From sequence record NC_024146.1: DNA of 56,702 nt, one strand, 5' to 3'. Origin of the DNA: Enterobacteria phage 9g. Under the pieces are notes generated by a model. That model was not told the DNA's origin and ran no database searches. It worked only from the letters and a program-made list of their open reading frames with translations. The translations under genes and the position numbers were made by a program. This document shows, piece after piece, positions 1 to 22,058 of the stretch (positions within the stretch are counted from its first letter, which is position 1; every line of letters starts with the position of its first letter).

Positions 1-1
1 T

Positions 2-2998: not shown

Positions 2999-3006
2999 AA
3001 GTAACC

Positions 3007-4644: not shown

Positions 4645-4670
4645 GGTTTGCAGTTTCCTTGTGTGGTCAA

Positions 4671-5204
4671 TTATTTGCAATAGTTAACATGGCATTTGGA
4701 CGTTTCTTCAATGGTGCATTCTACCAATTCAACACCATATTGGTCAAGTAGTTGAGGACCAATTACGTCAACCATATATGCAGCTAAGTTTTCCGCAGTT
4801 GGGTTGAATGGTAAAGCTACCAAAGAATTAAAGAAAGGATCGTAATCTTCATCCGTCACTAAATTGTTCTCACGTGCAAACTTAGTTGATGCAACAACAA
4901 TGAGCGAATTAATCATGCTGTCTTGTTCCCAATGCAGGAACTTATGATCCCAATTATCTTCCAACCACTGGCAGAGCGTAGTTTTAACCACACTAAAGTC
5001 GATAACCCGACCTACGTCGTCCAGCGAACCTTCTAGAGCAAATCCACTTACAGACTTAACGTAACCTTCCGACAATGTTTTCTTTGGTGCAACTTTAAAA
5101 TGGAACTTATAGTTGTGACCATGAAGATGACGACATTTGCTTTCATGCCCTACAACACGATGCCCAGCGCAAATCTCATGTGAACGAATAACAGTGTAAC
5201 CCAT
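4671..5204 (-). CDS. queD: 6-carboxy-5,6,7,8-tetrahydropterin synthase (QueD / PTPS family)
   Basis: 177 aa. N-terminal CAGHRVVGHESKCRHLHGHNYKF (Cx..HGH zinc/catalytic motif of QueD/PTPS). Confidence 0.85.
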   Translation of the reverse strand: MGYTVIRSHEICAGHRVVGHESKCRHLHGHNYKFHFKVAPKKTLSEGYVKSVSGFALEGSLDDVGRVIDFSVVKTTLCQWLEDNWDHKFLHWEQDSMINSLIVVASTKFARENNLVTDEDYDPFFNSLVALPFNPTAENLAAYMVDVIGPQLLDQYGVELVECTIEETSKCHVNYCK

Positions 5205-5206
5205 TT

Positions 5207-6622: not shown

Positions 6623-6623
6623 A

Positions 6624-7385
6624 TTATTTACCTTCCTTAACCATTTCAATTTCACGCTCAACGGATGCAATAATATCGTTGAGGTCTTCCAGTACGTCTT
6701 TATGACCGCGCTCACCCGCACACAGCACCTTCTTCAGTGCATGTTGCATGGGCCCACTGGTTACATTGAATGCTTTAATTACGTCGTACACGTCAACCCA
6801 TACATCAATTTCGATTGGGCTACCGTTAATGTCATGGGATTCAAAAGTTTTAATTTTGCGCATATATTTATTTGGACGTGGAGCTTTAATCTCCTGGATA
6901 CAACCATTGTCGATAAACGTTTCTTTAATGAATACTTCAGGATTGCCTTCTTTGTCATGATCAACGTTAAAGACATTCGTAAGTAGATCGTCCATGATAC
7001 TTGTTAATTTATGAGTAGACGTTGTGTACTTCATGGTATTCGCTTCCGCTTCCTCTGCTGCTTTCTGACTTCTTCTGGCAGAAGTATTGATACGCCATTT
7101 GTAGAGTGCATTACGTGGAGGTGTTACATGCGTGTTGTAGACCGTCTTTAAGTTCATAAGATCGTGTCCATCCATACCTTCAACAAAGACAGTGAGTGCA
7201 GGACAACTATCGTTCAGAACATCCACCAAATATCCTTCCCGAATTACAGATGCAAGAGCTGCATGTGACGCAGCTTGAGAAACTGTGGTTACATAATGTT
7301 TCACAAATCCGTCTTCATCAAACAGACACTGGTTCAACACATTTTCTGGAACAATTTCACCGAGTAATTGAACGTACTTATTCAT
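6624..7385 (-). CDS. Hypothetical protein embedded in the 7-deazaguanine operon
   Basis: 253 aa, ATG at 7385 with AAGGT upstream; tightly packed between queE and gat-queC. No motif recognised by eye. Confidence 0.6.
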   Translation of the reverse strand: MNKYVQLLGEIVPENVLNQCLFDEDGFVKHYVTTVSQAASHAALASVIREGYLVDVLNDSCPALTVFVEGMDGHDLMNLKTVYNTHVTPPRNALYKWRINTSARRSQKAAEEAEANTMKYTTSTHKLTSIMDDLLTNVFNVDHDKEGNPEVFIKETFIDNGCIQEIKAPRPNKYMRKIKTFESHDINGSPIEIDVWVDVYDVIKAFNVTSGPMQHALKKVLCAGERGHKDVLEDLNDIIASVEREIEMVKEGK

Positions 7386-7447
7386 AATGATTTACCTTAT
7401 CAGTTGAACATACCATGTCTTCCAGCGTGTTTTGAATATGTATAACT

Positions 7448-8212
7448 TCACTCTACGCCTAAATATTTATGAATCTGCAATTGCACGATGTAATTGTGCT
7501 TCATTGCATATTTAACGACAGCTTGAGCGTTTGCTTTATTAGCATCGTCGTCCTGTTCATCCATAGGTTGAAGATAAATTTTACCTTTAAAGTGTACAGG
7601 TGGACGTGCGATAAATGGTGTCGCACGGTGATCCAGTGCCTGCAACGGTAATCCATCTTCCTCGTTGACGTTTCCGCTTTTCATTACATATTTGAAAGCA
7701 TCCGCTCGAGCGGAAACGCTAGGGTGGACCTTTGCTGCCTTAGGACTACATACTACCACACAGTTATAGTTGAGTTCACGCGGGATAGGCATAGTTCCGT
7801 TAGTTTCAACCTGTACACGATAACCTTTCATATCAATGAGGTAATTGATAAAATTAGCAACTTCAGGTTGACGGAAAGGTTCGCCGCCCGTAATGACAAC
7901 TAAGTCAGTCTTGGCTTCACCAGTGACACGGACAATCTCTTGCCAAATGTCACCGTGATTCATCTTCTTACGATTGGACGTATAGTTTGTATCACATCCT
8001 GGGCATTGCAAATTACAACCAGCTAATCGAACAAACACGGCAGGTTGACCACAAAATGGGCCTTCGCCTTGAATGGTATGAAAAATGGAATGCACGTCAA
8101 GAATACCACGTTCACGAACTAACTTCTCAGGTTCCTGAGTATTAATAATTTTCATATGATTTCCAAATTTGGCTTGAGCCCAGTGGTGGGCGATAATGGC
8201 TTGTGCAAACAT
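7448..8212 (-). CDS. queE: 7-carboxy-7-deazaguanine synthase (QueE), radical SAM
   Basis: IFHTIQGEGPFCGQPAVFVRLAGCNLQCPGCDT carries the QueE N-terminal signature and the CxxxCxxC radical-SAM cluster. The longest ORF starts with TTG at 8236; the ATG at 8212 preceded by GAGGT is preferred (8155 is an alternative). Confidence 0.85.
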   Translation of the reverse strand: MFAQAIIAHHWAQAKFGNHMKIINTQEPEKLVRERGILDVHSIFHTIQGEGPFCGQPAVFVRLAGCNLQCPGCDTNYTSNRKKMNHGDIWQEIVRVTGEAKTDLVVITGGEPFRQPEVANFINYLIDMKGYRVQVETNGTMPIPRELNYNCVVVCSPKAAKVHPSVSARADAFKYVMKSGNVNEEDGLPLQALDHRATPFIARPPVHFKGKIYLQPMDEQDDDANKANAQAVVKYAMKHNYIVQLQIHKYLGVE

Positions 8213-8280
8213 TTGAACCTCGGGGTAAGATAACAAAGGGGCAGTAAATGCCCCTTCTGAGTTTCCGAAGTATCTACAGA

Positions 8281-9105
8281 TTACTCTGCAGTTTTCTGAG
8301 ACGGAATTTCTACGTTAGCGGCCGCTTGTGCAATATTAGCAGGTACTGGAACGGATACGCGACCAGTAATGCCCATGTATTTCTTCCAGCGAGCGTATTC
8401 CGCTTTGACGTTCGCTTCGTTCAGGCCTTTGTCCAGTGCAACAGGCAGAACGTAGCTGATCGGCGCAGTCTGACCGAGCTCCAGGGTCACAGCGTCAAAG
8501 ATATCCCATGCAGCACGGCACAGAGTACCGACACCTGGCTTGCGAATACCGTTCTGTTCAGGCTCTTTCTTAGCTTCGCGTTCTGCTGCTTTACGAGCAC
8601 GCTCTTCGTCCTGCAGACGTTTCTTCTCAGCGCGTTGTGCGTCACGTTGCGCTTTTTCAGCGGCCTTAGTGGCTTCGCGGGCAGCGGATACACGACCTTT
8701 AACATCTTTCAGAGTGGATTCAATGGAGGAAACCAGATCTTCAGATGCTGCAACGGCAGTTTTCAGCTGATCGTTGTCTTTAACTTTACGTGCTGCCGCT
8801 TTAACAGCTTTCAGACCTTCTTTAGCGGTCTTCAGTTGAGCGGTAACTACGCCTTCAACTGCTTTAACTTCGTCCAGCAATGAACCTTCGTTCAGGGTCG
8901 CGAACTGTTCTTTAACAGCGGACACAGCACCTTCGATCACATTGTAACCGGCAGTGGCTTCGTTCAATGCGGCGTCAACTTTAGCCTGCAATTCACGTGC
9001 TGCTTTTTCTTCAGCTTCACGTTTTTTCTTTGCTTCAGCTTCTTTTGCTGCTTTCTTTGCTGCTTCTTCTGCTTCCAGTTGTTCTGGAGTTTTCTCTTTA
9101 GCCAT
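8281..9105 (-). CDS. Hypothetical coiled-coil protein (Ala/Glu/Lys-rich)
   Basis: 274 aa, ATG at 9105 with GAGGAT upstream; N-terminal ~190 aa are a low-complexity helical A/E/K repeat. Confidence 0.6.
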   Translation of the reverse strand: MAKEKTPEQLEAEEAAKKAAKEAEAKKKREAEEKAARELQAKVDAALNEATAGYNVIEGAVSAVKEQFATLNEGSLLDEVKAVEGVVTAQLKTAKEGLKAVKAAARKVKDNDQLKTAVAASEDLVSSIESTLKDVKGRVSAAREATKAAEKAQRDAQRAEKKRLQDEERARKAAEREAKKEPEQNGIRKPGVGTLCRAAWDIFDAVTLELGQTAPISYVLPVALDKGLNEANVKAEYARWKKYMGITGRVSVPVPANIAQAAANVEIPSQKTAE

Positions 9106-9160
9106 GATTTAAATCCTCACAGTGTGGTTATTGGTTGTGAACTACGTTCTAAGTGGTTGC

Positions 9161-9189
9161 ACTATAACCCCTCTAAAAGAACTATGCAA
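9161..9189 (-). promoter_or_regulatory. Candidate sigma70-type promoter (-35 TTGCAT, 17-bp spacer, -10 TATAGT) for gene 8281..9105
   Basis: On the minus strand: TTGCAT (9189-9184), 17 nt, TATAGT (9166-9161), ~55 nt upstream of the ATG. Confidence 0.35.
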
Positions 9190-9201
9190 TAATTTAGTTA
9201 A

Positions 9202-9924
9202 TTAATTTAAGCCACGTTCTTTTACCCAGACCCCTAATGTATTACTTGATGTATTACGCTTCACACCTTGTGCCTCTAAACGATCCATCATTTGTTTTCT
9301 AAGCTGTAGGATTTCCTTCTTGTCACGAGGTTCACCAGCTTCTTTCCACATTTCGTCAGCAATAACGAAAATAATATCGCGAGTGCCGGCTGTACGCAAC
9401 GTTGCGGCACGTTTTTCGTTTGTCGGTGTGCTAGTACCTTGCCGCTCCCTTGTCGGTGTCCATGCCCCTTGTATGCCCATATTTGTTTGTACGGTTGGGC
9501 CGTCAATGATGGTGGATTCCAATGAACTATCATTCCGTACTTGAATATTAGGCTCCTCCCCCAAATCTGGAACAGAGCTGCCTTCGCGGTACATGCACTC
9601 ACCCTCTTTATTACTAGCAATTGCCCAGTCCGCTTGTTCAGCCACATCCGCATCTATCACTGTCTCCGGTATTTCATTTAAAAAGTAATGGATGATCTTA
9701 CTGATCATTTTCTTTGGATATAAAGCACCTTGCTTATTACCCGTTAAGTTGATATACAAAAGTTGCATTTGCACATCATCAAACTCTTTATACAGTTCTT
9801 CAACTTCTAACGGAAGAACTACAGAACTTTCGCTACAGCATAGAATTCCATACTCATGAAGACGTTGGAAGTTTGGATGCTTGGCTAATACCTGCATCCG
9901 ATCATAATCAATTAAGACGTACAT
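9202..9924 (-). CDS. Hypothetical protein
   Basis: 240 aa, ATG at 9924 with GGAAGGA upstream. Confidence 0.6.
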   Translation of the reverse strand: MYVLIDYDRMQVLAKHPNFQRLHEYGILCCSESSVVLPLEVEELYKEFDDVQMQLLYINLTGNKQGALYPKKMISKIIHYFLNEIPETVIDADVAEQADWAIASNKEGECMYREGSSVPDLGEEPNIQVRNDSSLESTIIDGPTVQTNMGIQGAWTPTRERQGTSTPTNEKRAATLRTAGTRDIIFVIADEMWKEAGEPRDKKEILQLRKQMMDRLEAQGVKRNTSSNTLGVWVKERGLN

Positions 9925-9944
9925 GTTAATCCTTCCAATTAAAA

Positions 9945-11948
9945 TTAAAACGGAATGTCGTCATCAAAATCTGGTGGTAGTTCTTTACCGTTACCAGTAA
10001 GAATAGGTTGATTAGACGTAGAATGCAATACCGTCGTACGGGAATCAGTCTGCTCATCTTCATCAAACTTATTCGTATAACTGCTACCAAACTGGGACAG
10101 ACCATTCATTGCTGCAATTTGTACAACCGGACGTTCGTTTGTTGCTTCTTTCTTACCGAATTCACTACCATCATAACAACTATTCAACACTTCAGGGAAC
10201 TTACCCTTCAAGTTGACATAAATGTGCGTCGGTACACGAAGCTGGCTGACCACATTGAGGGCTTCATCAATGTTAGCTGGGATTGCCAGGCTACAATGCT
10301 CACGCCACCAGTTACGCGCTTTCTTGCCCGCAAAGCCAGTATGGAACAAGCAGATGTATTGTTGGATAGTTTGTGAGCCACAAAGATAGTCGACACGAAG
10401 TGTTGGTGGTTTAGAACGGTCACCCCTGTTCTCGTGGCGGTAGTAACTCACCATATCAACTTTCAACACTTCAGTAACTGGTAAATCATTCTTGATAATA
10501 GCTTTCGTACTAGCACTCGCCATTAGTTTCTTCTCAAAAGTAAACTCATGACCGCAATAACCAGCACGGCACGCTTTATTATTTGTAATGGTATAACCTG
10601 ATCCTTGCAGATAGAGTATTTCTTCATGCGACATACTGCTTGTGTCGAATGGTTTTAACCCACCACAGAAGCGAACTGACGCATGGTTCCATGTTTTACA
10701 TATTGGGCATTCCTTAACAGGTGCAGCGGATTTTCCTTTCTGCCCTGGGCGCTTAGGAATAACAGGGTCATTAATAGGCCCAAGGCGTCTTGTGTTACCT
10801 GCATAATCCAATACAAGACAGTTCTGTTTATGCGAAGCGGAGATAGCTTGCAAACGACCCTCCGTTGTGGTCAAATCAAAACCATCTGCATAATCAGGTC
10901 GTGTACCACGTCCAAGCATCTGAACCCACAAACGGGAAGATTGAGATGGTCGCATACCAATTATCAAATCAAGTCCCGGATGGTCAAAGCCTGTCGTTAA
11001 TACGTTGTTGTTTGCTATTGCCTGTAAACGACCAGCTTTAAAATCAATAAGATACTGGTCACGCAAGGCTTTAGGTGTGTCACCAGTTACAACTTCACAA
11101 CTAATACCGCGCTCGTTGAGGTAGTCTTTAACATCTTTTGCATGGTCTACACCAGCACAAAAGACAAGCCAACTCATTCTATTCTCTTCTTCCGCAATAC
11201 TAATTGCATCATCTAATAAATGGCGAGTTACATCAGGATCGTTTACAACCTTTTGAAGCTCACTTTCAATGAACTCACCGCCTCGAGTATGAACACCACT
11301 TACATCATACTCTTTCTTTGTTTTACGTGGTACTAACGGAACAAGATAACCTTCATCAATGAACCAGTTGAAGCACTCTACGGTACACGCGTTAAATACG
11401 ATTTCATCAAATAGAGCGTTAGGCGCATAATCATCTTTGATAATAGAACCAAAACCAAGACGCCAACTCGTAGCAGTAAGACCGATGATCTTTAGATATG
11501 GATTCTTTTCGCGAATGTGCGCAAAGAACTTCTGATAACTTGTTTGCTGATTTGGACTAATAAGGTCACATTCGTCAACTATAATAATATCAACGTCCTC
11601 AAAGTATTTAGCTTGTTTTGCAACAGACTGAATACCCGCGAACGTTATCATTGCATTCTTATCTTTGCGACCCATACCAGCACTGTAAATACCAGTCGGT
11701 GCTTCAGGCCACAACTTCTTAAATTTATCGTGGTTCTGGTCTATCAATTCTTTTACGTGAGTAATTACCATCATGCGGGTACTACCCCAATTATCGTGAA
11801 TTGTCTTTAATAGACCAGCAATTACAAGGGACTTACCAGTCCCTGTAGGCAACAAGATAACAGGATTTCCTGACTTTTCACCATGCTTGATGAAATAGCG
11901 CAATGTACTGTTTACAGCTTCTTGCTGATAATCACGTAGTTTGAACAT
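9945..11948 (-). CDS. Superfamily-2 DNA helicase (DEAD/DEAH-like) with C-terminal zinc-ribbon-like region
   Basis: 667 aa. DYQQEAV (Q motif), Walker A LLPTGTGKS, DExD-like IIVDECD, LTATSWR (motif III-like); CPICK...C near the C-terminus. Confidence 0.8.
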   Translation of the reverse strand: MFKLRDYQQEAVNSTLRYFIKHGEKSGNPVILLPTGTGKSLVIAGLLKTIHDNWGSTRMMVITHVKELIDQNHDKFKKLWPEAPTGIYSAGMGRKDKNAMITFAGIQSVAKQAKYFEDVDIIIVDECDLISPNQQTSYQKFFAHIREKNPYLKIIGLTATSWRLGFGSIIKDDYAPNALFDEIVFNACTVECFNWFIDEGYLVPLVPRKTKKEYDVSGVHTRGGEFIESELQKVVNDPDVTRHLLDDAISIAEEENRMSWLVFCAGVDHAKDVKDYLNERGISCEVVTGDTPKALRDQYLIDFKAGRLQAIANNNVLTTGFDHPGLDLIIGMRPSQSSRLWVQMLGRGTRPDYADGFDLTTTEGRLQAISASHKQNCLVLDYAGNTRRLGPINDPVIPKRPGQKGKSAAPVKECPICKTWNHASVRFCGGLKPFDTSSMSHEEILYLQGSGYTITNNKACRAGYCGHEFTFEKKLMASASTKAIIKNDLPVTEVLKVDMVSYYRHENRGDRSKPPTLRVDYLCGSQTIQQYICLFHTGFAGKKARNWWREHCSLAIPANIDEALNVVSQLRVPTHIYVNLKGKFPEVLNSCYDGSEFGKKEATNERPVVQIAAMNGLSQFGSSYTNKFDEDEQTDSRTTVLHSTSNQPILTGNGKELPPDFDDDIPF

Positions 11949-12899
11949 TTACTCACCGTAATAATCTGCTGCTTCGTATTGACCACATGCAGCCATCTGA
12001 TCTTCCTTCGTTAATACACCTTCGGTTCCATCTGTGATGTATGCAGTGGCAGAAGCTACTTTGATTGCACATCTCCAGGTTCCATCTTCAAGCGGATAAG
12101 AGTGCTTACAGGTGCGGCAGTTAACTTCAGGCATCTTATTGTTATGACATACCGCTTTGTGGTCACACCATTTGCATTTATAGTAAGACTTACTTTCATT
12201 GATCTTAGGTGGTGGGCATTCTGCCAGTGCAATTACAAATCCACGGTCTTTGTAGCGTTCTGCGGTTTCTTTATCAAACGGTACAAGCTCTGCCCAAATC
12301 TCGTCCGTGTTCTTATTAACTGCAATATAAAGAGCGGCTGGGAGTCCATAGTACAACATGTATTCCTGCATCTGAACATAGTGCTCCCATTTGGATTCCA
12401 TTACACCATTAACGACAAGTTTCTTGAACGAATCATTATTGTGCGTTTTCATCTCCGTTAAGATTGGTGTAGAAGGTTGTGGCATGTCAGGACAACCAAT
12501 GACAATACCATCTATCGCGGAGCCAAAGTGTCCGTTGAGATAGCTGACTCGGTACTGGCTACCATTTTCGTCTTGTTGGATGACTTGCATACCGGCGGTA
12601 AGTAATAAGGCCACGAAGCGACCTTCTTCAAGATGTCCGCGATTGAATAGACGTAAGGTTTTACCGTTAAAGTGTGGTTTTGTTGCCCATCTCCATCCGT
12701 AGAAGATTGCTCTGCTACACTCTTGCCCGATAAGACTAATCCCAAGATGCGAACGGAATCCGCCATCCCCCTCTCTATATGCGTCTTCAATATGCGGTAA
12801 TACTTTTCCGAGCCATACTCTGTAAGCGGATCCTTGATCTCGTTCAATACAGTCATTGAATAACTCCATTGTCTTAGTAGCAGGATAAAAATGTGGCAT
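11949..12899 (-). CDS. Putative PD-(D/E)xK-type nuclease with C-terminal Cys cluster (Cas4/RecB-like exonuclease)
   Basis: 316 aa. C-terminal CKWCDHKAVC ... CRTCKHS ... C (Fe-S/Zn-like cluster); sits between the helicase and the recombinase genes. Confidence 0.45.
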   Translation of the reverse strand: MPHFYPATKTMELFNDCIERDQGSAYRVWLGKVLPHIEDAYREGDGGFRSHLGISLIGQECSRAIFYGWRWATKPHFNGKTLRLFNRGHLEEGRFVALLLTAGMQVIQQDENGSQYRVSYLNGHFGSAIDGIVIGCPDMPQPSTPILTEMKTHNNDSFKKLVVNGVMESKWEHYVQMQEYMLYYGLPAALYIAVNKNTDEIWAELVPFDKETAERYKDRGFVIALAECPPPKINESKSYYKCKWCDHKAVCHNNKMPEVNCRTCKHSYPLEDGTWRCAIKVASATAYITDGTEGVLTKEDQMAACGQYEAADYYGE

Positions 12900-12961
12900 A
12901 TCATAATCCTATATAGAAAAATAAAGCTCCCGGAGGAGCTTTATTATAACATGATTTTTAA

Positions 12962-13888
12962 TTACTGTGCAGCGTCATCACCTTCAGTGGAACGTTTCCA
13001 CGGTGGAGTCTTGGTCTGAGCTGCTTTAGCGATATCGTCCTGGACTTCCGGTTCTGCATGGTTAGCAGTACCAGTGTTCTGAGCTTGAGTTTGCGGTTGC
13101 TCTGCTCCAGGCTGTACCTGCTGAGTTGCCCAGTTAGGCTGCTGTGTGGTTTGTTGCTGCTGCGGCTGCTGCGCACCAGTAGCCCACGGTTGAGATTGTG
13201 CCGCGCTGTTAAAATCAACTGTTCCAGACTGCTGCTGTTGCTGTACCGGCTGCTGCGGCTGTTGTTGCTGCTGCGGTTGCTGGAACCCCTGAGCCTGAGG
13301 TTGTTGCTGCTGTTGCTGCGGCTGCTGCCCAAATGCGCCCGGGAAACCCTGCTGCTGCGGTTGCTGCTGTTGTTGCTGAGCACCACCGAACGCACCACCA
13401 CCAAATGCTGGAGATTGTGCTGCCGCTGCCGGAGTTGATTTAGGCAGGTTAGCCATATCCGCCTTAGTTGCGTATACAACACCTTCCATATTATCAATTG
13501 CTTGATAAATCTGAGGTTCGTTGTTTGGCTCATAGCCAGGTTGCTGACGAACTTTCACTTTCAGGTTAAACGGAATACCGTGCAGTTGTTCCGTATCGTT
13601 CCAGACTGGAACTTTAACAGCACGAGACAGCTCTGCCAGTTCTTCCATTGCAATCTGTACAGCGACAGGGTTCGCGTTCTTGACGTTGTAACCGCCAAAC
13701 ATCACACGACCAGCAAAATCACCCTGCATGATCTTAAACTGAAGATTCAGACGCGCACCGCCTGGAGTTTTAGTCGGTTTGATTTCAGAGTTTACAATCT
13801 GAACAACATACCAACCAGCGGGCATCAAGCTGTTGTGTTGACGCTCTGCGTGTTGTCCAGCGTTAAATTGCATTCCTAAACCGGCCAT
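12962..13888 (-). CDS. Putative ssDNA-binding/annealing protein (DUF669-like) with long Gln/Pro-rich linker
   Basis: 308 aa, ATG at 13888 with AAGGGG upstream. Globular N-terminal domain followed by a ~110-aa Q/P/G-rich low-complexity segment; adjacent to a Sak4-like ATPase gene, as is typical for DUF669 proteins. Confidence 0.5.
   Translation of the reverse strand: MAGLGMQFNAGQHAERQHNSLMPAGWYVVQIVNSEIKPTKTPGGARLNLQFKIMQGDFAGRVMFGGYNVKNANPVAVQIAMEELAELSRAVKVPVWNDTEQLHGIPFNLKVKVRQQPGYEPNNEPQIYQAIDNMEGVVYATKADMANLPKSTPAAAAQSPAFGGGAFGGAQQQQQQPQQQGFPGAFGQQPQQQQQQPQAQGFQQPQQQQQPQQPVQQQQQSGTVDFNSAAQSQPWATGAQQPQQQQTTQQPNWATQQVQPGAEQPQTQAQNTGTANHAEPEVQDDIAKAAQTKTPPWKRSTEGDDAAQ
13093..13435. repeat. 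CAG/CTG-rich low-complexity DNA encoding the poly-Gln/Pro linker
   Basis: Runs of ctgctg/ttgctg on the plus strand (e.g. 13200-13400) correspond to QQQQQQPQQQ... in the minus-strand protein. Confidence 0.7.
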
Positions 13889-14633
13889 TATTGTACCCCT
13901 TTGATTTTGTTAATGATTGCACCGAGATGTGGATATTCCATCTGTCTAACGAACCAGAACGATCTTTACATACATTTGACAGATCTGGTCTTGTCAGCAG
14001 ATAACGAAAATCTGCTTGAGTATTTTGGTCTTTACCAACACTAATCTTGAACACTTCGTCAAAAAAGTATGGTAATTCTGGACCTAATTTTGCACCAGGC
14101 ATAGAAGGACCATAAGACGTAATACCTGTTAACTCGTCCTTATTACGGGACATTTTAGCTGCCATGTATACGTTAAGTCCAGGGATATCTCGAAAAGCAC
14201 GAACCAACGTTTGCATCTTCTCAATGAGATCCCCATAAGCCTGACGCGGATCCTTTACAGTACGCTTCGCATTGTTAAGGCACTTTTCAGCAATCTCAGT
14301 AAGTGAATCCAGCGCAAGAGACTGAAAGCGCGGTAAACCATCTTCACCTACAGGATTGTTTGCAGGATTAGTTGCCCAAACGTAAGCCTGCTCCACATCC
14401 TGGATATTTTCAACCGTGATGGTTGGAATATCGTAACAGATATCTGGTCTGTTTTCACCAAACACACGAGCAATGTTATTCGGTGTTAAAGACAGAAGCC
14501 CAGACTCTGCAGAAATCAGCAACGGTCTTGGAAGAGTTGCTGTAAGCATGGTCTTACCCATACCGGATTCACCATACACAAGCATCTTGACACCAGTGTC
14601 CAAAACTGCCTGCGCGGTAGTTGTAAATTGCAT
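13863..14633 (-). CDS. Sak4-like RecA-fold ATPase (phage recombination protein)
   Basis: 256 aa. Walker A GESGMGKT near the N-terminus; ATG at 14633 with AAGGAA upstream. Confidence 0.6.
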   Translation of the reverse strand: MQFTTTAQAVLDTGVKMLVYGESGMGKTMLTATLPRPLLISAESGLLSLTPNNIARVFGENRPDICYDIPTITVENIQDVEQAYVWATNPANNPVGEDGLPRFQSLALDSLTEIAEKCLNNAKRTVKDPRQAYGDLIEKMQTLVRAFRDIPGLNVYMAAKMSRNKDELTGITSYGPSMPGAKLGPELPYFFDEVFKISVGKDQNTQADFRYLLTRPDLSNVCKDRSGSLDRWNIHISVQSLTKSKGYNNGRFRNAI

Positions 14634-14697
14634 AAGTTGTTCCTTGTGTGGTTACGGTTGCAATACTAGGACCTAATTAACCTGAATGCAAACGTGA

Positions 14698-15642
14698 TTA
14701 TTCACTAATATCTGTTGGATCACGGAAACTTTGATGCGTAGGAATACGCAATTTGTCTTTCATACCGTGAGCAAAGAATTTCCATTTAGAAATCTTCCCA
14801 ATGAATTCATCAGGATGCTCAAAATAATATTTACGTTCTTCGTGCGTAAGACGACCAGCACCTACACGCATCTCTTGCCCGACTTCAATAAGATCTTCAA
14901 GGCCTTCTGGTACTGTAAGCACACGTACATCAAATGAGCCAACCATACCATTTGGAACCATATTAGCTTGATGACTTGAACGATAAGTCTGCCCTAACTC
15001 ATTAATCTGGGCTTCATTCTCATTGGTGCAACCTTCGATGATACGAATGATCTCACCTTCACCATCAGTAAAACGTTTGATGCGGAGATAACCGCCTTCA
15101 CGCTGCGTACTACGGCCCCATTTATATTTCGCTTCAAGGTCACGAATAATAACACCTTCGTACCCCATATCGAGCCAAATATTTTCCCACTCCAGGAGTT
15201 CTTGTTCGTTGTTGACCACATACAGTGGTACAAGTTTCACGTCCATCAACTCACCGTTAGCGTGGCATTCGTCCACGTACTTCTTGAGCATATCATAACG
15301 CTCTTTGTACGGTAGATGTGCAACGTTCGGTTCGCACAAATCGAATACATGCCACGTCCAAACGTATTCACCTTCAATTTTAGATGTTGCACTACTTGTT
15401 TTGCGACATAAGTCAAAGTCCGTTTCGTCCCCAACGGCAAGCTCACCGTCCATACCATCATAAATGGGAGATCCAAACACCTTTGCGACCTGCTTATTTG
15501 CAAAAGATTTAAGACTTCGTCCAACAAGTTCCCCAAACGGCTTCATTCCACGAACGCCGTCAATTTTAGGCATAATACCTACAGGATATTTCTGTTTAGC
15601 TGAATCCCAATCTGTTGCTAGATAAGGTTTAAATCGAGCCAT
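14698..15642 (-). CDS. ATP-dependent DNA ligase
   Basis: 314 aa. Adenylation motif I KIDGVRG (KxDG); ligase-like length and context. Confidence 0.8.
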   Translation of the reverse strand: MARFKPYLATDWDSAKQKYPVGIMPKIDGVRGMKPFGELVGRSLKSFANKQVAKVFGSPIYDGMDGELAVGDETDFDLCRKTSSATSKIEGEYVWTWHVFDLCEPNVAHLPYKERYDMLKKYVDECHANGELMDVKLVPLYVVNNEQELLEWENIWLDMGYEGVIIRDLEAKYKWGRSTQREGGYLRIKRFTDGEGEIIRIIEGCTNENEAQINELGQTYRSSHQANMVPNGMVGSFDVRVLTVPEGLEDLIEVGQEMRVGAGRLTHEERKYYFEHPDEFIGKISKWKFFAHGMKDKLRIPTHQSFRDPTDISE

Positions 15643-16219
15643 TGAAATTTACCTTTGTGTGTTCTCGAACAAGAAGTTTTAACTTCCTAACCCAAGATTG
15701 CTGTTTCTCAATGTTAACTTTTTTCGGTTTAGGAATAACGGATTTTGCTGTATCTACTTTTAATTTATCGTAGTCCATGCGTCGTCTACCTGTTCGCATG
15801 TGCATACCCGCAATTTCATCGCACTTGTCTTGTGCAAGGCTACGGGAATCCATCCTACCTGAATGACCTTTAACATGACGGAATTGGAAACTAAGCCTGT
15901 TCTCGACAATAGTATCCATGAACCATTTATATACTTGCTGCTCTTCTCCTCTCGGTGGACGCTTACCTTCGAACATATGGATAGCTGCTTTGCAATCCGT
16001 CTGGAACAATATAACGTCGCTTGTGTAGATAAGTCCAGCCTCTATACCATGATATAAACCGTTAGCTACTGCAATACATTCAACTACGGTATTATCTGTG
16101 TGACCATGCGCAGGGCCACCGAAAGCCTTCTTACCTCGTTTGGAGGCTACCCAAATTCCATAGCCTCCACATCTAGTACGGTGACAAAACGACGCATCCG
16201 ATATTATCGTGATGAGCAT
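15629..16219 (-). CDS. RNase H-like ribonuclease
   Basis: 196 aa. N-terminal ISDASF...GYGIWV and HVKGHSG (cf. RNase HI ...VKGHAG); acidic residues spaced as in the RNase H fold. Confidence 0.55.
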   Translation of the reverse strand: MLITIISDASFCHRTRCGGYGIWVASKRGKKAFGGPAHGHTDNTVVECIAVANGLYHGIEAGLIYTSDVILFQTDCKAAIHMFEGKRPPRGEEQQVYKWFMDTIVENRLSFQFRHVKGHSGRMDSRSLAQDKCDEIAGMHMRTGRRRMDYDKLKVDTAKSVIPKPKKVNIEKQQSWVRKLKLLVREHTKVNFNGSI

Positions 16220-16645
16220 TTAACCCTTCTTAACAGCGATCTTAACCTGTGGAGAACCTAGAGTTGTGGTCACACATTCGTCAAAGATTGCCAACTGTTC
16301 AGCTGTGAGCTTACGATATGCAGCCACACGGAGTTCTACTTTAGTTTCAGTAACTTCGTTAACATCCACACCAGCTTTAATAAGGTCTGGTAGGATCTGA
16401 CTAAAGATCGCCTTATCAACTTTACGCGTATAAGGTTGAGTAACAACAAGATCATCACCTGTATCAAGTTTAATCTTGTTGGTATTTTCGTTAAGGCCAT
16501 CCGGGAAGAAGACGCTAACCACACTTTGACGCAGTGCGCGTTCTTGCGCTTGCACTCTGGCTAATTCTTCTTTCTTAGAATACCACTTGTAAAGGAGTTC
16601 GTACTTCTGCTCTTCAGTTAAGTTCATTTCTGGTAACTGGACCAT
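16220..16645 (-). CDS. Hypothetical protein
   Basis: 141 aa, ATG at 16645, packed immediately upstream of the RNase H gene. Confidence 0.55.
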   Translation of the reverse strand: MVQLPEMNLTEEQKYELLYKWYSKKEELARVQAQERALRQSVVSVFFPDGLNENTNKIKLDTGDDLVVTQPYTRKVDKAIFSQILPDLIKAGVDVNEVTETKVELRVAAYRKLTAEQLAIFDECVTTTLGSPQVKIAVKKG

Positions 16646-16720
16646 GTTATCGCCCTCGTTGTTTGCTAGTAGGGGTATAATACTTAGAATTAAATTCCTT
16701 GTAAATACCCCTAAATATGA

Positions 16721-17230
16721 TTACAACTTACCAGTAGAACCAAAACCCCCGCGGCCCGTTTCTTCTACAATACCAGAAACAATGCGCGTACGAACCAACT
16801 CCACAAGACGCGCCTGTGCAATACGTTCGCCAACCTGGACTGTATAAGGTTCACAAGAGTCGTTATGTAGACGTATCTTCAACTCATCCCGGTAATCATG
16901 ATCAATGATACCAATACAGTTACCTAAACGAATGCCGTGTTTAAACCCGTGACCGCTACGTGAATAAACTTCCAGGCCGTAACCATGAGGGATCTGTAGC
17001 TTAATACCCGTGTTGAACGTATACGCACGACCACCATAGATAGTTACGGGCTCTGGTTCATCCGCATAGATATCAAAGCACATAGAACCTGGAGTGGCAA
17101 ATCGCGGCATCTGAGCAGTGTCCGTAAGGAGTTCCACAAGTAGCTGTTGCACAGCGCCATCTTGAACCGCAATAGTACCTTTGACAGTCACATCTTTGAT
17201 AATATCAGACATAGCGTCTTTGTTAGTCAT
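16721..17230 (-). CDS. dut: dUTP diphosphatase (dUTPase)
   Basis: dUTPase motifs RSGHGFKHG, GNCIGIIDHDYRDE, and C-terminal GRGGFGSTG (motif V). The longest ORF starts with GTG at 17239; the ATG at 17230 is preferred. Confidence 0.85.
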   Translation of the reverse strand: MTNKDAMSDIIKDVTVKGTIAVQDGAVQQLLVELLTDTAQMPRFATPGSMCFDIYADEPEPVTIYGGRAYTFNTGIKLQIPHGYGLEVYSRSGHGFKHGIRLGNCIGIIDHDYRDELKIRLHNDSCEPYTVQVGERIAQARLVELVRTRIVSGIVEETGRGGFGSTGKL

Positions 17231-17366
17231 GTTTTTCACTCTCTTTATTAAACAGACGTTGTTCCCATTGTTGCTTTAACTGATAATAACGATAAGCGTC
17301 CTCACCAGTTTCAGCTTCCCGTTGCATACGTTCACACCATTGAACAGGACTTTCCTCACAACTCAC
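17223..17366 (-). CDS. Small ORF (47 aa from GTG, or 34 aa from the ATG at 17326), acidic
   Basis: Not in the ORF track (<60 aa). AGGAGG immediately after the upstream stop, GTG 8 nt later; the stop overlaps dUTPase codons 2-3. Peptide: MSCEESPVQWCERMQREAETGEDAYRYYQLKQQWEQRLFNKESEKHD. Confidence 0.3.
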   Translation of the reverse strand: MSCEESPVQWCERMQREAETGEDAYRYYQLKQQWEQRLFNKESEKHD

Positions 17367-17378
17367 TTATTACACCTC

Positions 17379-17840
17379 CTAAGCGTGGCCGTTTCTCTTA
17401 ATGTATTCGTAAGCGTGTGATTTAAAGATTATCCGAAAATCTTCCAGGGATATTTCACATCTTGGAGGATCTTCTTTGTGATGTTTCGCTTCATCAGCGA
17501 AGAGCATGATAGGGTTCATATACAGGACTACGCGCCAGGACTTTTTATTTTGACGGTACATAAGAACTGGAAACTTGTCTGCTTCCAATGCACTCTTAAC
17601 ACACTGCGCCCACCATGTGTTAATTGATAGCTGCTCCTGTCGTTTAACTTCTACCGCATAGAAACAGGTATTTGTGATATCACAACCACCTACAGCACTC
17701 TGATTCTGATTACGTTGTGCTATGGGCTTTTCTGGATAAGTCATTCCAAGAGCGGCGTAAACTTCTTCGTAGATATCATTAAAGAATTTACAAATTTCAC
17801 GCTCACCTGTCTGACCTTTAGTACGAGGATTAGCTCCCAT
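17379..17840 (-). CDS. Putative PD-(D/E)xK nuclease (Holliday-junction-resolvase-like)
   Basis: Start moved to the ATG at 17840 (GGAGA 8 nt upstream); the longer ORF to 17897 would run through a terminator hairpin. Motif ...CFYAVEVKRQEQ (E-x-K) is compatible with a PD-(D/E)xK fold. Function is inferred. Confidence 0.4.
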   Translation of the reverse strand: MGANPRTKGQTGEREICKFFNDIYEEVYAALGMTYPEKPIAQRNQNQSAVGGCDITNTCFYAVEVKRQEQLSINTWWAQCVKSALEADKFPVLMYRQNKKSWRVVLYMNPIMLFADEAKHHKEDPPRCEISLEDFRIIFKSHAYEYIKRNGHA

Positions 17841-17857
17841 GTTATAAATCTCCATCC

Positions 17858-17884
17858 AAAAATAGGGGGTACACAAGTACCCCC
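17858..17884 (-). terminator. Intrinsic terminator-like hairpin (minus strand)
   Basis: gggggtac(17865-17872) / gtaccccc(17877-17884), 8-bp GC-rich stem, 4-nt loop; minus-strand RNA then reads UAUUUUU. Confidence 0.4.
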
Positions 17885-18025
17885 GAAAGCGAAGCATATA
17901 ATAGATAATAACATGTCAGCGAGAGGCAGCCTTCGAAAAGGGGTAATCTACCAACCACTCTCGCAAATAATGTTAACCTGTTTACGTGTTTGATTGCAAT
18001 ACACGAATTCATCAGAATTCACAGG

Positions 18026-18301
18026 TCATACCATACATTTTTGCCAATGGCCCATAGAAAATGACAGCGAAGTGCAGACAACTTCCAACCCGTTATCATC
18101 ACGTACCACGGGCAAAGCTAGGCCGCTGCGGGCGTTATGTACAGTGCGGTGTACTCTATACACAGAGTTATGCGTAAAGCGCCGCGTGTTCACGTTTGTG
18201 CAGCGTAATAACGCTCCGATATGCACAAGTGGAGCGGGCATAGTAAAGCCAATCATTAAATCCTTCTCTTTCTTATTGGGCTGGCGTACAGTTACATTCA
18301 T
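18026..18301 (-). CDS. Hypothetical protein
   Basis: 91 aa. Its ATG overlaps the stop of the upstream HTH ORF (ATGA), suggesting translational coupling; no recognised motif. Confidence 0.35.
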   Translation of the reverse strand: MNVTVRQPNKKEKDLMIGFTMPAPLVHIGALLRCTNVNTRRFTHNSVYRVHRTVHNARSGLALPVVRDDNGLEVVCTSLSFSMGHWQKCMV

Positions 18302-18477
18302 TGTGTCGTCCCCTCATTTAAAGATTCCAGGCGCTCACCTAACAAAATGAGCGATTTGATTTGATGCGGTTTCTTACCAAGATGTTCAGCAATGTGGTTA
18401 TAAGTAAAACCATTCTCCCGCATACGATAAGCAGTAATAGCGGCATTGCGATTGCGGATATCGGTTTTCTTACTCAT
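18298..18477 (-). CDS. Small helix-turn-helix protein
   Basis: 59 aa, not in the ORF track: MSKKTDIRNRNAAITAYRMRENGFTYNHIAEHLGKKPHQIKSLILLGERLESLNEGTTQ. The segment GFTYNHIAEHLG is HTH-like. Confidence 0.45.
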   Translation of the reverse strand: MSKKTDIRNRNAAITAYRMRENGFTYNHIAEHLGKKPHQIKSLILLGERLESLNEGTTQ

Positions 18478-18794
18478 GGTAAACTAATTCTCCTTAATTT
18501 AGCTTCAATACGATTAATTAGCATCGATATACTACGATCTGCAACCATATGACGCGGTTCGTAGTAACCATATGCCCAATAGTTTACCTCTTGCCCACAA
18601 TGATTACAATTAATCTTTGACTCGCACACAGGCGAATAGTAGCCATCAATGTGATCTACAACAGTCTCTGTAAACTCAGTGTGACCACACTTTGCGCATC
18701 GTGTACACTTCATTTCCTTGTCGTAGTTTGAGCGAAAAGTATAAGGCTTCCATCCTAACACCTTGTATATTTTGCTAGGCATTAATTTACCCAT
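18474..18794 (-). CDS. Zinc-ribbon protein
   Basis: Start moved to the ATG at 18794 (AAGGAG 7 nt upstream). CTRCAKCGH ... CESKINCNHCGQ gives two CxxC pairs. Confidence 0.55.
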   Translation of the reverse strand: MGKLMPSKIYKVLGWKPYTFRSNYDKEMKCTRCAKCGHTEFTETVVDHIDGYYSPVCESKINCNHCGQEVNYWAYGYYEPRHMVADRSISMLINRIEAKLRRISLP

Positions 18795-18829
18795 CGCCCA
18801 CTCCTTAAATCTTAATGGTAAACTGGAAG

Positions 18830-19027
18830 TTAAAAGAACGTACCAGTAAGCACATACAGCACAGCGTCGCGCAGTGTTGGCAACAAAGGCGAACATTTAG
18901 GAACGCTGTAGAATTTACGTGATCCCACTTTAACACTCACTATTGTAATAGAACGTTTATTGCGCTCTACTGCGTGGAGACCACCACCGAGACGACGAAC
19001 TTTATATAGAGGTTGATGCTTTTGCAT
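18830..19027 (-). CDS. Small basic hypothetical protein
   Basis: 65 aa, ATG at 19027 with AAGGAG 8 nt upstream. Confidence 0.5.
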   Translation of the reverse strand: MQKHQPLYKVRRLGGGLHAVERNKRSITIVSVKVGSRKFYSVPKCSPLLPTLRDAVLYVLTGTFF

Positions 19028-19044
19028 GTTTTAACTCCTTTCAT

Positions 19045-19323
19045 TTATTTACTGACACGTATAGCTTTACCTGTTAAGAAGGTGTACCCACAGTGCCGCA
19101 TTAAGTCACGTTCTTCTATTACACTTCGTAACTGGCGTGACAGCGTTTCATAGTAAGGACGGACCTCGTTCCTACTAATAGCTAAAGCATAGGCGAACAG
19201 TTGTTCCGAGTCAATACGATTAGACTTGATTCTTTGGATTGCCTGCTCAATTCCTGGGAACTCCTCATCCTGGTACAGAGCACCGTACACAATTTTAATA
19301 GCTGCTAGATTGTAACTGGACAT
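19045..19323 (-). CDS. Hypothetical protein
   Basis: 92 aa, ATG at 19323 with GAGGG upstream. Confidence 0.55.
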   Translation of the reverse strand: MSSYNLAAIKIVYGALYQDEEFPGIEQAIQRIKSNRIDSEQLFAYALAISRNEVRPYYETLSRQLRSVIEERDLMRHCGYTFLTGKAIRVSK

Positions 19324-19358
19324 TTAACCCTCGGACGTAAAATAATTCGTGATACCTA

Positions 19359-19386
19359 TTGCATTCCTAAGGAAATGCTCTATAGT
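19359..19386 (+). promoter_or_regulatory. Candidate sigma70-type promoter (-35 TTGCAT, 16-bp spacer, -10 TATAGT)
   Basis: TTGCAT 19359-19364, TATAGT 19381-19386, followed by GGAGGA and the ATG at 19422. Confidence 0.4.
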
Positions 19387-19421
19387 ATGTATTATACAGT
19401 TTGTAAGCGGAGGAACACAAA

Positions 19422-19652
19422 ATGACTCACCAAGATCTTATAAAAAGAAACATCAGAACTGCAATGAACAAATCAGAGGAATTTTCACACAACTGTACTG
19501 ATGGTACTCATAAAATTAGATACGAATATATGGGATCCTCAACTGTGGTTACATTTGAGAAAGATGAGTATCACGTTGGAGATTTTTCAACACCAGATTA
19601 TGACGAGATGTTTGAATACGTTGTATGTGGGTTCTTAGAGTTGCACGAATAA
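19422..19652 (+). CDS. Hypothetical protein (lone plus-strand gene within the minus-strand block)
   Basis: 76 aa. Own promoter-like element, strong SD (GGAGGA), and a terminator directly downstream. Confidence 0.6.
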   Translation: MTHQDLIKRNIRTAMNKSEEFSHNCTDGTHKIRYEYMGSSTVVTFEKDEYHVGDFSTPDYDEMFEYVVCGFLELHE

Positions 19653-19656
19653 TATA

Positions 19657-19686
19657 ATGGGCGCATATAGCGCCCATTTTTTTTAT
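19657..19686. terminator. Bidirectional Rho-independent terminator
   Basis: atgggcgc(19657-19664) / gcgcccat(19670-19677), 8-bp stem, 5-nt loop, then T9 on the plus strand; A/T-rich flank on the other side. Lies between convergent genes 19422..19652 (+) and 19683..22058 (-). Confidence 0.6.
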
Positions 19687-22058
19687 AGCTTAATAATCTT
19701 CTCCATGCGTTCGATATCCACTAAATAACACTTCATCCTCGGTGGTACAAAATCAGGACCGAATAAACTTGAGAAGTCCATAGGCCTCATTTCAGCAAGA
19801 ACTTCCATAGACATCAGACCATAAATTGTATTGTCTATGACCTGCAATATGTTGTCGTTTCTTGTCTGCTTGAACGCTTTAAATTGCCTACAATAAGTAC
19901 ATAAATCACTCCGTGTAACTATAAACGAGTCCTTAAACATTGGGAATTTATCATACACATAAGCCTTCACTTCTCCGTCCAAGAATCTTTTTATAGTCGC
20001 GAGCATTATCTTCTCACGGCTTGTACTATCTGTAGACCCAATTTGCCCACTGTTACGCTTCTCTAAGAAACGCTCGTTACCCTGATCGATAAATGACTCA
20101 GCCCAACGATAATGTTCCATAGTAACAACGGGTCGTTCACTGTTATCCGCAACAGCAAGAAGAGAAGCTATACGCAATACCTTCAACGCCTTCCTTGTGT
20201 ACATCTGACGAATTACTTCGTCTTGCACCTGCTCACCATCGTTGCCGCTGTTCAGGAACTTCGCAACAACATTATCAAGATTATCAAACGCTTCGTGTAC
20301 CTCTGCTTCCATTTCAACATAACACGGAGCAGTCCCTGACATAATACGCACAGCTTGTTTATAGATAGCTCCAATAGTGCGCAGAATTGCTTCTGGATAT
20401 TCCAGGAGCATACTCTTATTCATCAACGGGCGGTTAGCTGTACATTCCCATGCGATAATACGGGACATGAAGCCACTAGACATCATACGGTCATCCACGT
20501 TCCCGTAAAATTCATCTGGTGTTGTTTCACCTGCAAAACTATACGCCTTAACCTTACCACCAGCAGTCGTATTATCTTTACTAGAGTGCTTTGAACCACC
20601 AGAGAAAGCATAGAAATGCCCCTTGTCATAAAGGGAAAGCATTTCATCCATAATGTCTTTAGCTTTACCAACTTCCATCTTACCGTTACGGAAAAACGCA
20701 CCGACTTCAGTCTTATAGTTGATGGATGAGCCACAAGACATAACGGACGTATCCATTATGACGTCCTTGCGCAATGCAGCATCAGACGCATAGGTACTTG
20801 TATCTAGGACACGTTCAATACCAAATATCTGCTGACCGTCTTGACCGCCATAATTGGATACTTGAGAAAGAATAGTTTCAATGTTAGAGCGAAACGCTTC
20901 TTTACCAATACCAGAACGTGCAATTAATACAAAGTAGTTATTCAAACCACTTCGTGTGACTGTGTTCCACGCCTTACCGCACATACCACTAAATAAAGCA
21001 AGAGCAGACAGAATACTAATGTCTTTAATAGGCAACAAGCTCGCTTTATACATATTACGCGCAACCTCGCCCATAAAGCCCGGAGGCCAAGCCAAACCGT
21101 CTGCCTGCTCTTCAGTGTAATTACCATCTGTGGTCAACACTTCTTCAGGTGGGCGTTCTGGTGTAGTTGCTTGACGTAGTTTTTCCGTGCGCTCTATAGC
21201 TGCATTAACGTTATTCTGAACTATCTGCATAAGTCCCATAGATTTAACATGGGCATCATAACGATAGTTGCGAATCATTCTATCCAGGTGATACGGACGT
21301 TTAATTTTTTCACCAGGCATACGACGGGAATCATCATAACGACTACTCATTGGTGAATACATGAATAGACGTCTTACCTGGAAATTGTACTTACTCTTAA
21401 AGCAAAGAAAGTCAATTAATGCAAATTCTGCTTCAGACTGAGAAGGGAAACAACGTTCGCCGATAGAAGTATCAACTTCTTCAGCTCTCCAACGACCTTC
21501 CCATAGCTGCTTAAACAATGTTCCGTTTTCTTGTTCGCACAGCTGGATATAGACATCCTGGTCTTCCATTGCATATGGGTCGTTACTAAAATCTTCTTCA
21601 GTAAGTTCCAGCATTTGGAAGCCATCAGACTCATTAATCTCACTCATCTCAGACATAAGTTGATGAATGAGATTAGCGATATACCCTTCGCTTTCACTGC
21701 CTGGAGCACCAGACACAATACGCGGAGTAATATCCCAGTGATCGCCTGTACAGATAATAAAACGATACTGCGAATACACTTCCACACCATCACGGCGCTT
21801 ACCAGCCTGAGGGATGGAATAAATCCATGTATGCAACCCATCACCACTTCTGGAAATTTCCGTATAGCTATGGAACGATTCAACAATCTTCTTATATCGC
21901 TCACCAGCAACTTTCTTTTCCATTTCAGACATGGTATCTTTAATGTCCATGTCTATACAACAGAACGGGTCACTTGGAAGTAGATAGAAACCTAAACGCA
22001 AGTTATGGCCAATCTCGTTATAATAACGAACGCAGCGTTCAGCATCTTCAAAAGACAT
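19683..22058 (-). CDS. Putative DNA primase (PrimPol/AEP-type N-terminal domain) with C-terminal NTPase-like region
   Basis: 791 aa. AEP motifs CIDMDIKD (DxD) and SRSGDGLHTWIY (sGxGxH); later LIARSGIGKE (P-loop-like). Confidence 0.6.
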   Translation of the reverse strand: MSFEDAERCVRYYNEIGHNLRLGFYLLPSDPFCCIDMDIKDTMSEMEKKVAGERYKKIVESFHSYTEISRSGDGLHTWIYSIPQAGKRRDGVEVYSQYRFIICTGDHWDITPRIVSGAPGSESEGYIANLIHQLMSEMSEINESDGFQMLELTEEDFSNDPYAMEDQDVYIQLCEQENGTLFKQLWEGRWRAEEVDTSIGERCFPSQSEAEFALIDFLCFKSKYNFQVRRLFMYSPMSSRYDDSRRMPGEKIKRPYHLDRMIRNYRYDAHVKSMGLMQIVQNNVNAAIERTEKLRQATTPERPPEEVLTTDGNYTEEQADGLAWPPGFMGEVARNMYKASLLPIKDISILSALALFSGMCGKAWNTVTRSGLNNYFVLIARSGIGKEAFRSNIETILSQVSNYGGQDGQQIFGIERVLDTSTYASDAALRKDVIMDTSVMSCGSSINYKTEVGAFFRNGKMEVGKAKDIMDEMLSLYDKGHFYAFSGGSKHSSKDNTTAGGKVKAYSFAGETTPDEFYGNVDDRMMSSGFMSRIIAWECTANRPLMNKSMLLEYPEAILRTIGAIYKQAVRIMSGTAPCYVEMEAEVHEAFDNLDNVVAKFLNSGNDGEQVQDEVIRQMYTRKALKVLRIASLLAVADNSERPVVTMEHYRWAESFIDQGNERFLEKRNSGQIGSTDSTSREKIMLATIKRFLDGEVKAYVYDKFPMFKDSFIVTRSDLCTYCRQFKAFKQTRNDNILQVIDNTIYGLMSMEVLAEMRPMDFSSLFGPDFVPPRMKCYLVDIERMEKIIKL

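Follow-up and report, generated by a model that had tools for sequence, protein, structure and literature searches.

Two copies of a promoter-like element, in which the hexamer TTGCAT is followed after 16 or 17 nucleotides (nt) by TATAGT, are found in the early region of coliphage 9g, and both are very probably functional promoters of the ordinary type read by the host sigma-70 RNA polymerase holoenzyme. The window analyzed is the 56,702-nt sequence NC_024146.1, which represents essentially the whole genome of this Nonagvirus. Site 1 lies on the minus strand, with its -35 hexamer (TTGCAT) at 9189-9184, a 17-nt spacer at 9167-9183 and its -10 hexamer (TATAGT) at 9166-9161. Site 2 lies on the plus strand, with TTGCAT at 19359-19364, a 16-nt spacer and TATAGT at 19381-19386; if the overlapping TAGTAT at 19383-19388 were the -10 instead, the spacer would be 18 nt long. 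Both sites are wholly intergenic, and each faces its neighboring gene.

The original prediction had described these elements at 9189-9161 (minus strand) and 19359-19386 (plus strand) as a recurrent promoter-like pair, and both copies are present there. The genome-wide motif scan that it proposed was carried out for TTGCAT-N15-19-TATAGT across the window and returned exactly two matches, sites 1 and 2. The mean expected by chance is 0.03, and 0/100 dinucleotide-preserving shuffles reached two matches. The word recurrent therefore holds for two exact copies but not for a family, as near-variants occur only at chance level. No copies of the pair with exactly one mismatch were found in the window, and when up to two mismatches were allowed, 21 sites were found against approximately 22 expected, with the additional ones all located within genes. 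On these counts a wider TTGCAT/TATAGT family was rejected.

The features of both sites are similar to those of Escherichia coli sigma-70 promoters (TTGACA-N17-TATAAT). The -35 hexamer TTGCAT matches the consensus at 4/6 positions with the TTG intact, and the -10 hexamer TATAGT matches TATAAT at 5/6 positions with T1, A2 and T6 retained. Spacing falls within 17 ± 1 base pairs (bp), being 17 bp at site 1 in all eight lineages compared, 16 bp at site 2 and 16-17 bp in the site 2 orthologues. Each site is found in non-coding DNA facing a gene, at 35-55 nt from the start codon, with room for a 5' untranslated region (5'UTR) and a ribosome-binding site. The likeness extends to A/T-rich upstream DNA and to conservation limited to key bases (TTG and the T, A and final T of the -10). 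Unlike the E. coli consensus, the 9g -35 ends in CAT rather than ACA, the -10 carries a G at position 5, and the extended -10 motif (TGn) is absent at both sites.

The most telling evidence comes from selective conservation of the recognition bases over the neighboring non-coding DNA. Because the gaps are almost completely identical within Nonagvirus, more distant relatives were used to obtain the footprint. At site 1, the gap upstream of the downstream gene was compared in eight lineages whose proteins share 38-73% identity, and it always contains TTGC(A/G)N, a spacer of exactly 17 bp and TA...T. The hexamer pairs are TTGCAT/TATAGT in 9g, TTGCGT/TATGCT in lineage L018, TTGCGC/TATATT in L019, TTGCAT/TATGCT in L020, TTGCGT/TATGCT in Kpn2-P2, TTGCGT/TACATT in CAjan, TTGCAC/TAACTT in Vid5 and TTGCAG/TAAAGT in yong3. 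Across the eight lineages, the -35 has a mean pairwise identity of 0.80 and the -10 one of 0.66, whereas the spacer reaches 0.38 and the flanks 0.37-0.38. TTGC is invariant throughout, as are TA...T and the 17-bp spacing, and the near-invariant columns of the alignment are T-T-G-C, T-A and the final T. The 25 bp upstream of the site 1 -35 are 68-84% A+T in all eight lineages, although the sequence itself is not kept; in 9g this UP-element-like tract (9190-9214, minus strand) is 84% A+T and may provide a contact for the alpha subunit of the polymerase.

A comparable footprint was found at site 2. Two metagenomic relatives encode diverged homologues of its downstream gene (28-31% identity) in the corresponding position beside the primase gene. 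The orthologous promoter reads TTGCAT-N16-TATACT in L021 (or an overlapping TACTAT at N18) and TTGCAT-N17-TAATAT in L022. TTGCAT and TA...T are thus kept at site 2 in three lineages with unrelated spacers. Such selective conservation of sigma-70-critical bases at fixed spacing makes the two sites look like functional promoters of the sigma-70 type. The description promoter-like is accordingly well founded, being backed by position, orientation, downstream terminators and a footprint restricted to the positions that sigma-70 requires.

Both sites belong to the early half of the genome. The minus strand from 28114 down to 36 carries the early, replication and deazaguanine genes, and the plus strand from 28375 to the genome end carries genes that include the structural ones. 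The roles of the two sites within this layout differ, since site 1 is co-directional with the early operon in which it lies and site 2 points against it. Site 1 heads a 274-amino acid (aa) gene at 8281-9105 (minus strand), located beside QueE. The gap preceding this gene spans 9106-9201, the -10 lies 55 nt from the ATG at 9105, and GAGGA precedes the start codon. The unit is closed by an intrinsic terminator at 8235-8257 (minus strand) with a hairpin of -15.4 kcal/mol (z = -3.8), and a terminator is annotated at the equivalent site in phages HdK1 and SP8. Site 2 heads a 76-aa gene at 19422-19652 (plus strand), which is the sole plus-strand gene within the minus-strand early region. The preceding gap is 98 bp (19324-19421), the distance from the -10 to the ATG at 19422 is 35 nt, and GGAGGA precedes the start codon. 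Downstream, a bidirectional intrinsic terminator at 19656-19678 (hairpins of -16.6 and -16.8 kcal/mol) offers the 76-aa gene a strong U-run, while the tail serving the minus-strand primase operon is weaker; its counterpart is annotated on both strands in SP8 and also in HdK1.

From these features a mechanism can be proposed in which sigma region 4 would read TTGCAT and sigma region 2 would read TATAGT, with A/T-rich upstream DNA adding alpha-subunit contacts. The predicted transcription starts lie approximately 7 nt past the -10, at around 9154 on the minus strand for site 1 and 19393 on the plus strand for site 2. The expected product of each promoter is a short mRNA, essentially monocistronic, that ends at the intrinsic terminator. 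Site 1 would act as an internal booster promoter in the direction of the early operon, while site 2 would drive the lone opposite-strand gene of the early region, from a core that overlaps a predicted, conserved minus-strand promoter. What the analysis shows directly is the sequence, position and conservation pattern of the sites; how polymerase binds, where it starts, and how the promoters differ in strength, timing and competition are deduced from these.

This minus-strand partner of site 2 is a promoter candidate, TTGTGT-N18-TATAAT, at 19391-19420, placed back to back with site 2 and facing the gene at 19045-19323. The two -10 boxes are on opposite strands and 4 bp apart, and as a result each -10 box covers the predicted start of the other promoter (approximately 19393 on the plus strand and 19384 on the minus strand). 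The candidate is 100% conserved in 8/10 close relatives. In L021 it corresponds to TTGCGT-N18-TACACT (approximately 3198-3227, with 3 bp between the -10 boxes), and in L022 to TTGTGT-N18-TATACT (approximately 6921-6950, 4 bp). Judged by sequence, this is a conserved back-to-back pair of putative promoters with overlapping cores, retained in three diverged lineages. The 98-bp gap must also hold the promoter of 19045-19323, unless that gene is transcribed by polymerase passing through the bidirectional terminator in its weaker direction. Polymerase would probably occupy only one of the two promoters at a time, and the pair may act as a switch in which the 76-aa gene competes with the downstream early genes for transcription. 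A conserved operator was not found in the region of site 2 and its partner.

Divergent promoter pairs with overlapping cores are known from the bioA/bioB control region of E. coli and from symmetric bidirectional promoters. The 9g pair is similar in that site 2 and its partner stand back to back with -10 boxes 4 bp apart, in a geometry kept in three lineages. Unlike the bioA/bioB type, the 9g pair shows no common operator, its predicted starts are approximately 9 bp apart, and its -10 boxes do not overlap; its competition is a proposal drawn from the layout.

Several points weigh against the view that these are ordinary sigma-70 promoters. With a generic sigma-70 matrix both sites score in the mid-range (approximately 10 bits), and many equal or better matches lie inside genes, so the hexamers alone are not diagnostic. 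The hexamers and spacers of both sites are unchanged in 10 Nonagvirus genomes, but the gaps are approximately 99% identical throughout, and close relatives therefore add little on their own. In all, 16 Nonagvirus genomes, including JenK1, JenP1/2, HdK1 and SE1, match positions 8000-20000 of the window at 94-97% identity (megablast). Given the promoter composition of 9g, the probability that some pair among 14 promoters would share all 12 hexamer bases is approximately 0.02-0.035. This identity is mildly unexpected, although noted post hoc, and leaves room for shared tuning. Finally, a literature search found no transcription start or transcriptome data for Nonagvirus or Queuovirinae, and nothing relevant on how 9g-like phages are transcribed or on the relation of deazaguanine to RNA polymerase. 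Neither the 9g genome paper (Kulikov et al., 2014; PMC4276943) nor the annotation of these stretches in relatives mentions a promoter at 9189 or 19359.

The choice of -35 sequence was examined by a census of TTGN-N16-18-TA...T sites in 9g, where non-coding DNA makes up 5.9% of the genome. TTGC-type matches were intergenic in 11/42 cases, compared with 1/30 for the TTGA type (Fisher p = 0.011). The sense-oriented intergenic candidates comprise 10 TTGC, three TTGT, no TTGG and no TTGA. A C or T at position 4 of the -35 is therefore a 9g rule and not a mark of two particular promoters. Lytic coliphages commonly use TTGC -35 elements with the host polymerase, as in the early promoters of coliphage T5 (for example PN25, with TTGCTT).

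One explanation for this rule would be that TTGC and TTGT were chosen over TTGA because the DpdA enzyme replaces the G of GA with a 7-deazaguanine (dG+ in 9g). Region 4.2 of sigma makes contact with the -35 G from the major groove side, on which the 7-substituent is also located. The only G of the consensus promoter, that of TTGACA, is in a GA context, and TTGC or TTGT would thus escape modification. In 9g, 25-27% of G is replaced by deoxyarchaeosine, with the motif stated to be unknown (PMC10484667), while a related enzyme in CAjan modifies GA and GGC (PMC7544227) and only GA is modified in Pseudomonas phage iggy. GA accounts for 26.3% of the G in the window, which fits the reported 25-27% dG+ and would agree with GA alone as the DpdA target in 9g, as in iggy; GA plus GGC together account for 30.2%. 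The TTGA census covered three annotated genomes (9g, CAjan from L015/L016 and T1 from L017) and two metagenomic relatives with sources among L019-L022. TTGA was found in 0/13 sense-oriented intergenic TTGN candidates in 9g, compared with 6/12 in the unmodified phage T1 (Fisher p = 0.014). The further lineages gave 1/5 and 1/6, and the TTGA site of the first, only 4 nt ahead of a start codon, is likely to be spurious.

Despite this, modification is an unlikely reason for the -35 usage of 9g. CAjan, the sole relative with a proven GA motif, has TTGA in 5/20 candidates, including the syntenic promoter of its Sak4 gene (TTGAGG-N18-TACAAT), and does not differ from T1 (p = 0.25). T1 itself resembles 9g in having TTGC in 5/12 candidates, so that TTGC is common in coliphages anyway. 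Moreover, orthologous promoters are not independent observations, the candidate lists are predictions, and the 9g motif is deduced from base composition. If the explanation were true, TTGCAT would be a "modification-proof" -35 and DNA hypermodification would have shaped promoter sequence. A lack of TTGA tied to GA-directed modification of G would then be a new, as yet weakly evidenced, example of hypermodification constraining regulatory sequence.

The original prediction had further proposed that the non-canonical TTGCAT might define one temporal class of promoters. On this proposal, the two sites would form a distinct, co-regulated class, with the exact TTGCAT/TATAGT pair as its hallmark and with reading or tuning unlike that of the other promoters. 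The mild improbability of the 12-position identity speaks for it, as does the fact that both sites drive single genes, small or of unknown function, bounded by terminators. Both sites also have TA just before the -35 (TATTGCAT), but this is all that they share outside the hexamers, and the spacers are unequal in length with no sequence in common. The palindrome in the site 2 spacer occurs once in the genome and is absent from relatives. No further members of such a class were found, given that one-mismatch copies are lacking and two-mismatch copies are intragenic and at chance level. Nor is the signature held at both loci in relatives outside the near-identical Nonagvirus genomes, since in the two more distant lineages with both orthologues available the site 1 and site 2 versions differ from each other and from 9g (TTGCGC/TATATT in L019 and TTGCAT/TATACT in L021 for the one lineage, TTGCAT/TATGCT in L020 and TTGCAT/TAATAT in L022 for the other). 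In the 9g genome paper (PMC4276943), the only regulators described are two putative ones, and a sigma factor is not among the products reported. A class of its own is thus not supported for TTGCAT/TATAGT; it is quite improbable, and the role given to TTGCAT as a class-defining -35 falls away in a genome where TTGC and TTGT are general and orthologues vary. As the identity was noted post hoc and is not kept in relatives, the matching hexamers are most likely a lineage-specific coincidence or reflect similar tuning of strength in a phage whose -35s are generally TTGC or TTGT.

It is very unlikely that the sites are chance look-alikes in A/T-rich intergenic DNA, unused while their genes are expressed by read-through or from elsewhere. 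In favor of this reading, the generic matrix finds many equal or better matches inside genes, and a consensus scan of positions 1-20000 gave 34 promoter-like sites against 41.7 expected from shuffles. However, the plus-strand 76-aa gene is unreachable by read-through of the minus-strand operon, and only the 98-bp gap is available for its promoter. Chance would also have to account for two exact copies where 0.03 were expected, and for conservation limited to sigma-70-critical bases at fixed spacing while the spacers were randomized.

Least probable of all is that a regulator of phage or host origin binds at or across TTGCAT, so that the motif recurs as an operator rather than through polymerase recognition: a perfect 11-bp palindrome (TTCCTAAGGAA) does lie in the -35/spacer of site 2, flanked by GCAT/ATGC, and interlocking with an opposite-strand promoter is a layout typical of regulated switches, but copies of TTCCTAAGGAA with up to two mismatches number 18 against 14.8 expected, none above chance, neither L021 nor L022 keeps the palindrome, nothing comparably symmetric is present at site 1, the conserved columns fit a sigma-70 promoter and not a dyad, and the model of the 76-aa protein has no helix-turn-helix or matched DNA-binding fold. 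An operator in the site 2 spacer was rejected on the basis of this chance frequency and lack of conservation. A sigma-54 reading, with TTGCA as the -12 box, was also rejected on inspection, as no GG element is found at the required upstream distance.

Searches against Rfam over the whole window gave nothing at gathering score. A weak resemblance to the PreQ1-I riboswitch (RF00522) at 9147-9191 (plus strand) adjoins genes of the preQ0 pathway and is antisense to site 1. It scores 14.9 bits against a gathering threshold of 39 and is antisense to all local genes. The match was judged to be due to chance because it is on the wrong strand and lies over a promoter spacer that is unconserved in relatives.

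The genes served by the two putative sigma-70 promoters belong to families of unknown function, phrog_11298 for the 274-aa product and phrog_17131 for the 76-aa product. Sequence searches of Pfam, NCBIfam and PDB with both products were empty, and PHROGs returned only these families. The annotation of HdK1 cites "9g_00009" and "9g_00024" for the two genes. Homologues of the 274-aa protein are found throughout deazaguanine-modifying siphoviruses in a constant gene order adjoining QueE, and the family always adjoins deazaguanine synthesis genes and always has its own candidate promoter. An AlphaFold model of the protein (predicted local distance difference test score, pLDDT, 91.6) contains a long three-helix coiled coil and a small C-terminal helical domain, in which the family carries the invariant motif P-E-Q-N-G-x-R-x-P ... 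C-x-x-A-W. A Foldseek search of the PDB with this model matched only generic coiled coils and was uninformative. The label "transcriptional activator FtrA" that some homologues bear found no support in this analysis. Predicted folding of the 5'UTR of the 274-aa gene is no more stable than that of shuffled sequences (z = +0.95). After the site 1 -10, within 9103-9160 (minus strand), the start region GCAACCAC is kept among the nearer lineages L018, L020 and Kpn2-P2, and a GTAGTTCACAAC-like block in the 5'UTR is kept in the same three.

The 76-aa gene is narrower in distribution than the 274-aa gene. Its AlphaFold model (pLDDT 80) shows a helix, three strands and a helix; it has no helix-turn-helix, and Foldseek against the PDB gave weak matches only, with no known DNA-binding fold. 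In CAjan, gp62 is a positional analogue, encoded on the plus strand beside the primase gene, with 8% identity and no detectable similarity. The 241-bp gap there (L015, 46074-46314) contains TTGCAT-N16-TATACT on the opposite (main) strand and TTTACC-N17-TACTAT facing gp62. Unlike site 2 and its partner in 9g, these two promoter candidates do not overlap.

A third TTGCAT promoter candidate, TTGCAT-N17-TAGTAT, is found at 14663-14691 (minus strand), upstream of the Sak4-like ATPase gene at 13863-14633. Its counterparts have TTTACA in three relatives and the TTGAGG -35 already mentioned in CAjan. Within Nonagvirus, substitutions fall in its spacer and 5'UTR. GCAACC directly follows its -10 (14661-14656).

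Kulikov et al. (2014; PMC4276943) had predicted two promoters of 9g, the main divergent pair Pl and Pr, within its large non-coding region. Sites 1 and 2 share with them the genome and the presumed host polymerase, but Pl and Pr were placed in the divergent gap at 28115-28374. The best sigma-70-like matches in this gap reach 7-8 bits, weaker than the approximately 10 bits of sites 1 and 2. The same gap contains the published pac site of 9g, at nt 28243-28244 (PMC5567051). TATAGT recurs in this region, as ACGTTATAGTA is found twice at approximately 28150-28230 (plus strand), without a -35-like partner.

Further elements were observed elsewhere in the early region. A 21-bp element, TTGCCCAT(A/T)GTAACAGTGGGC, occurs twice on the minus strand, at 26189-26209 and 27429-27449, in early-region gaps, where 0 copies are expected. 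It holds the inverted repeat GCCCA...TGGGC, and the promoter-like site TTGCCC-N17-TAATAT has its -35 and spacer within the first copy. By its sequence the element is a candidate operator for one of the putative regulators of 9g. At 3995-4024 (minus strand), the -10 of TTGCGA-N18-TATAAT directly adjoins or runs into the left arm of a terminator hairpin at approximately 3968-3992, and at 12943-12971 (minus strand) the -10 of TGCACA-N17-TATAAT does the same with a hairpin at 12920-12945. With a perfect TATAAT touching the left arm, a transcript from either site would lack the full stem. The two gaps could serve as terminator-then-restart modules; alternatively, what looks like a -10 may be no more than the terminator's A-tract. 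Finally, positions 25361-25903 comprise 543 nt without a convincing minus-strand (early) open reading frame, in which the short repeated words TTTTCGC, CACCCC and TTTCACC are abundant; the stretch may represent an origin of replication or a structured non-coding region of another kind.

Sites 1 and 2 are, on this analysis, newly recognized for 9g, although they would be members of a very well known kind. The promoters may serve as handles for engineering 9g-like phages, and their positions would aid the design of start-site mapping. Insertion of a gene under a phage early promoter was proposed in a 2017 restriction study (PMC5567051). The findings are of value mainly for the annotation of the genome, as they would add two, and probably three or more, internal host-type promoters to the two that had been predicted in the large non-coding region. 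They also define two compact putative promoter-gene-terminator units. The first contains a widely conserved but functionally uncharacterized gene next to the cluster for deazaguanine DNA modification, and the second a small opposite-strand gene whose predicted promoter is interlocked with a second one.

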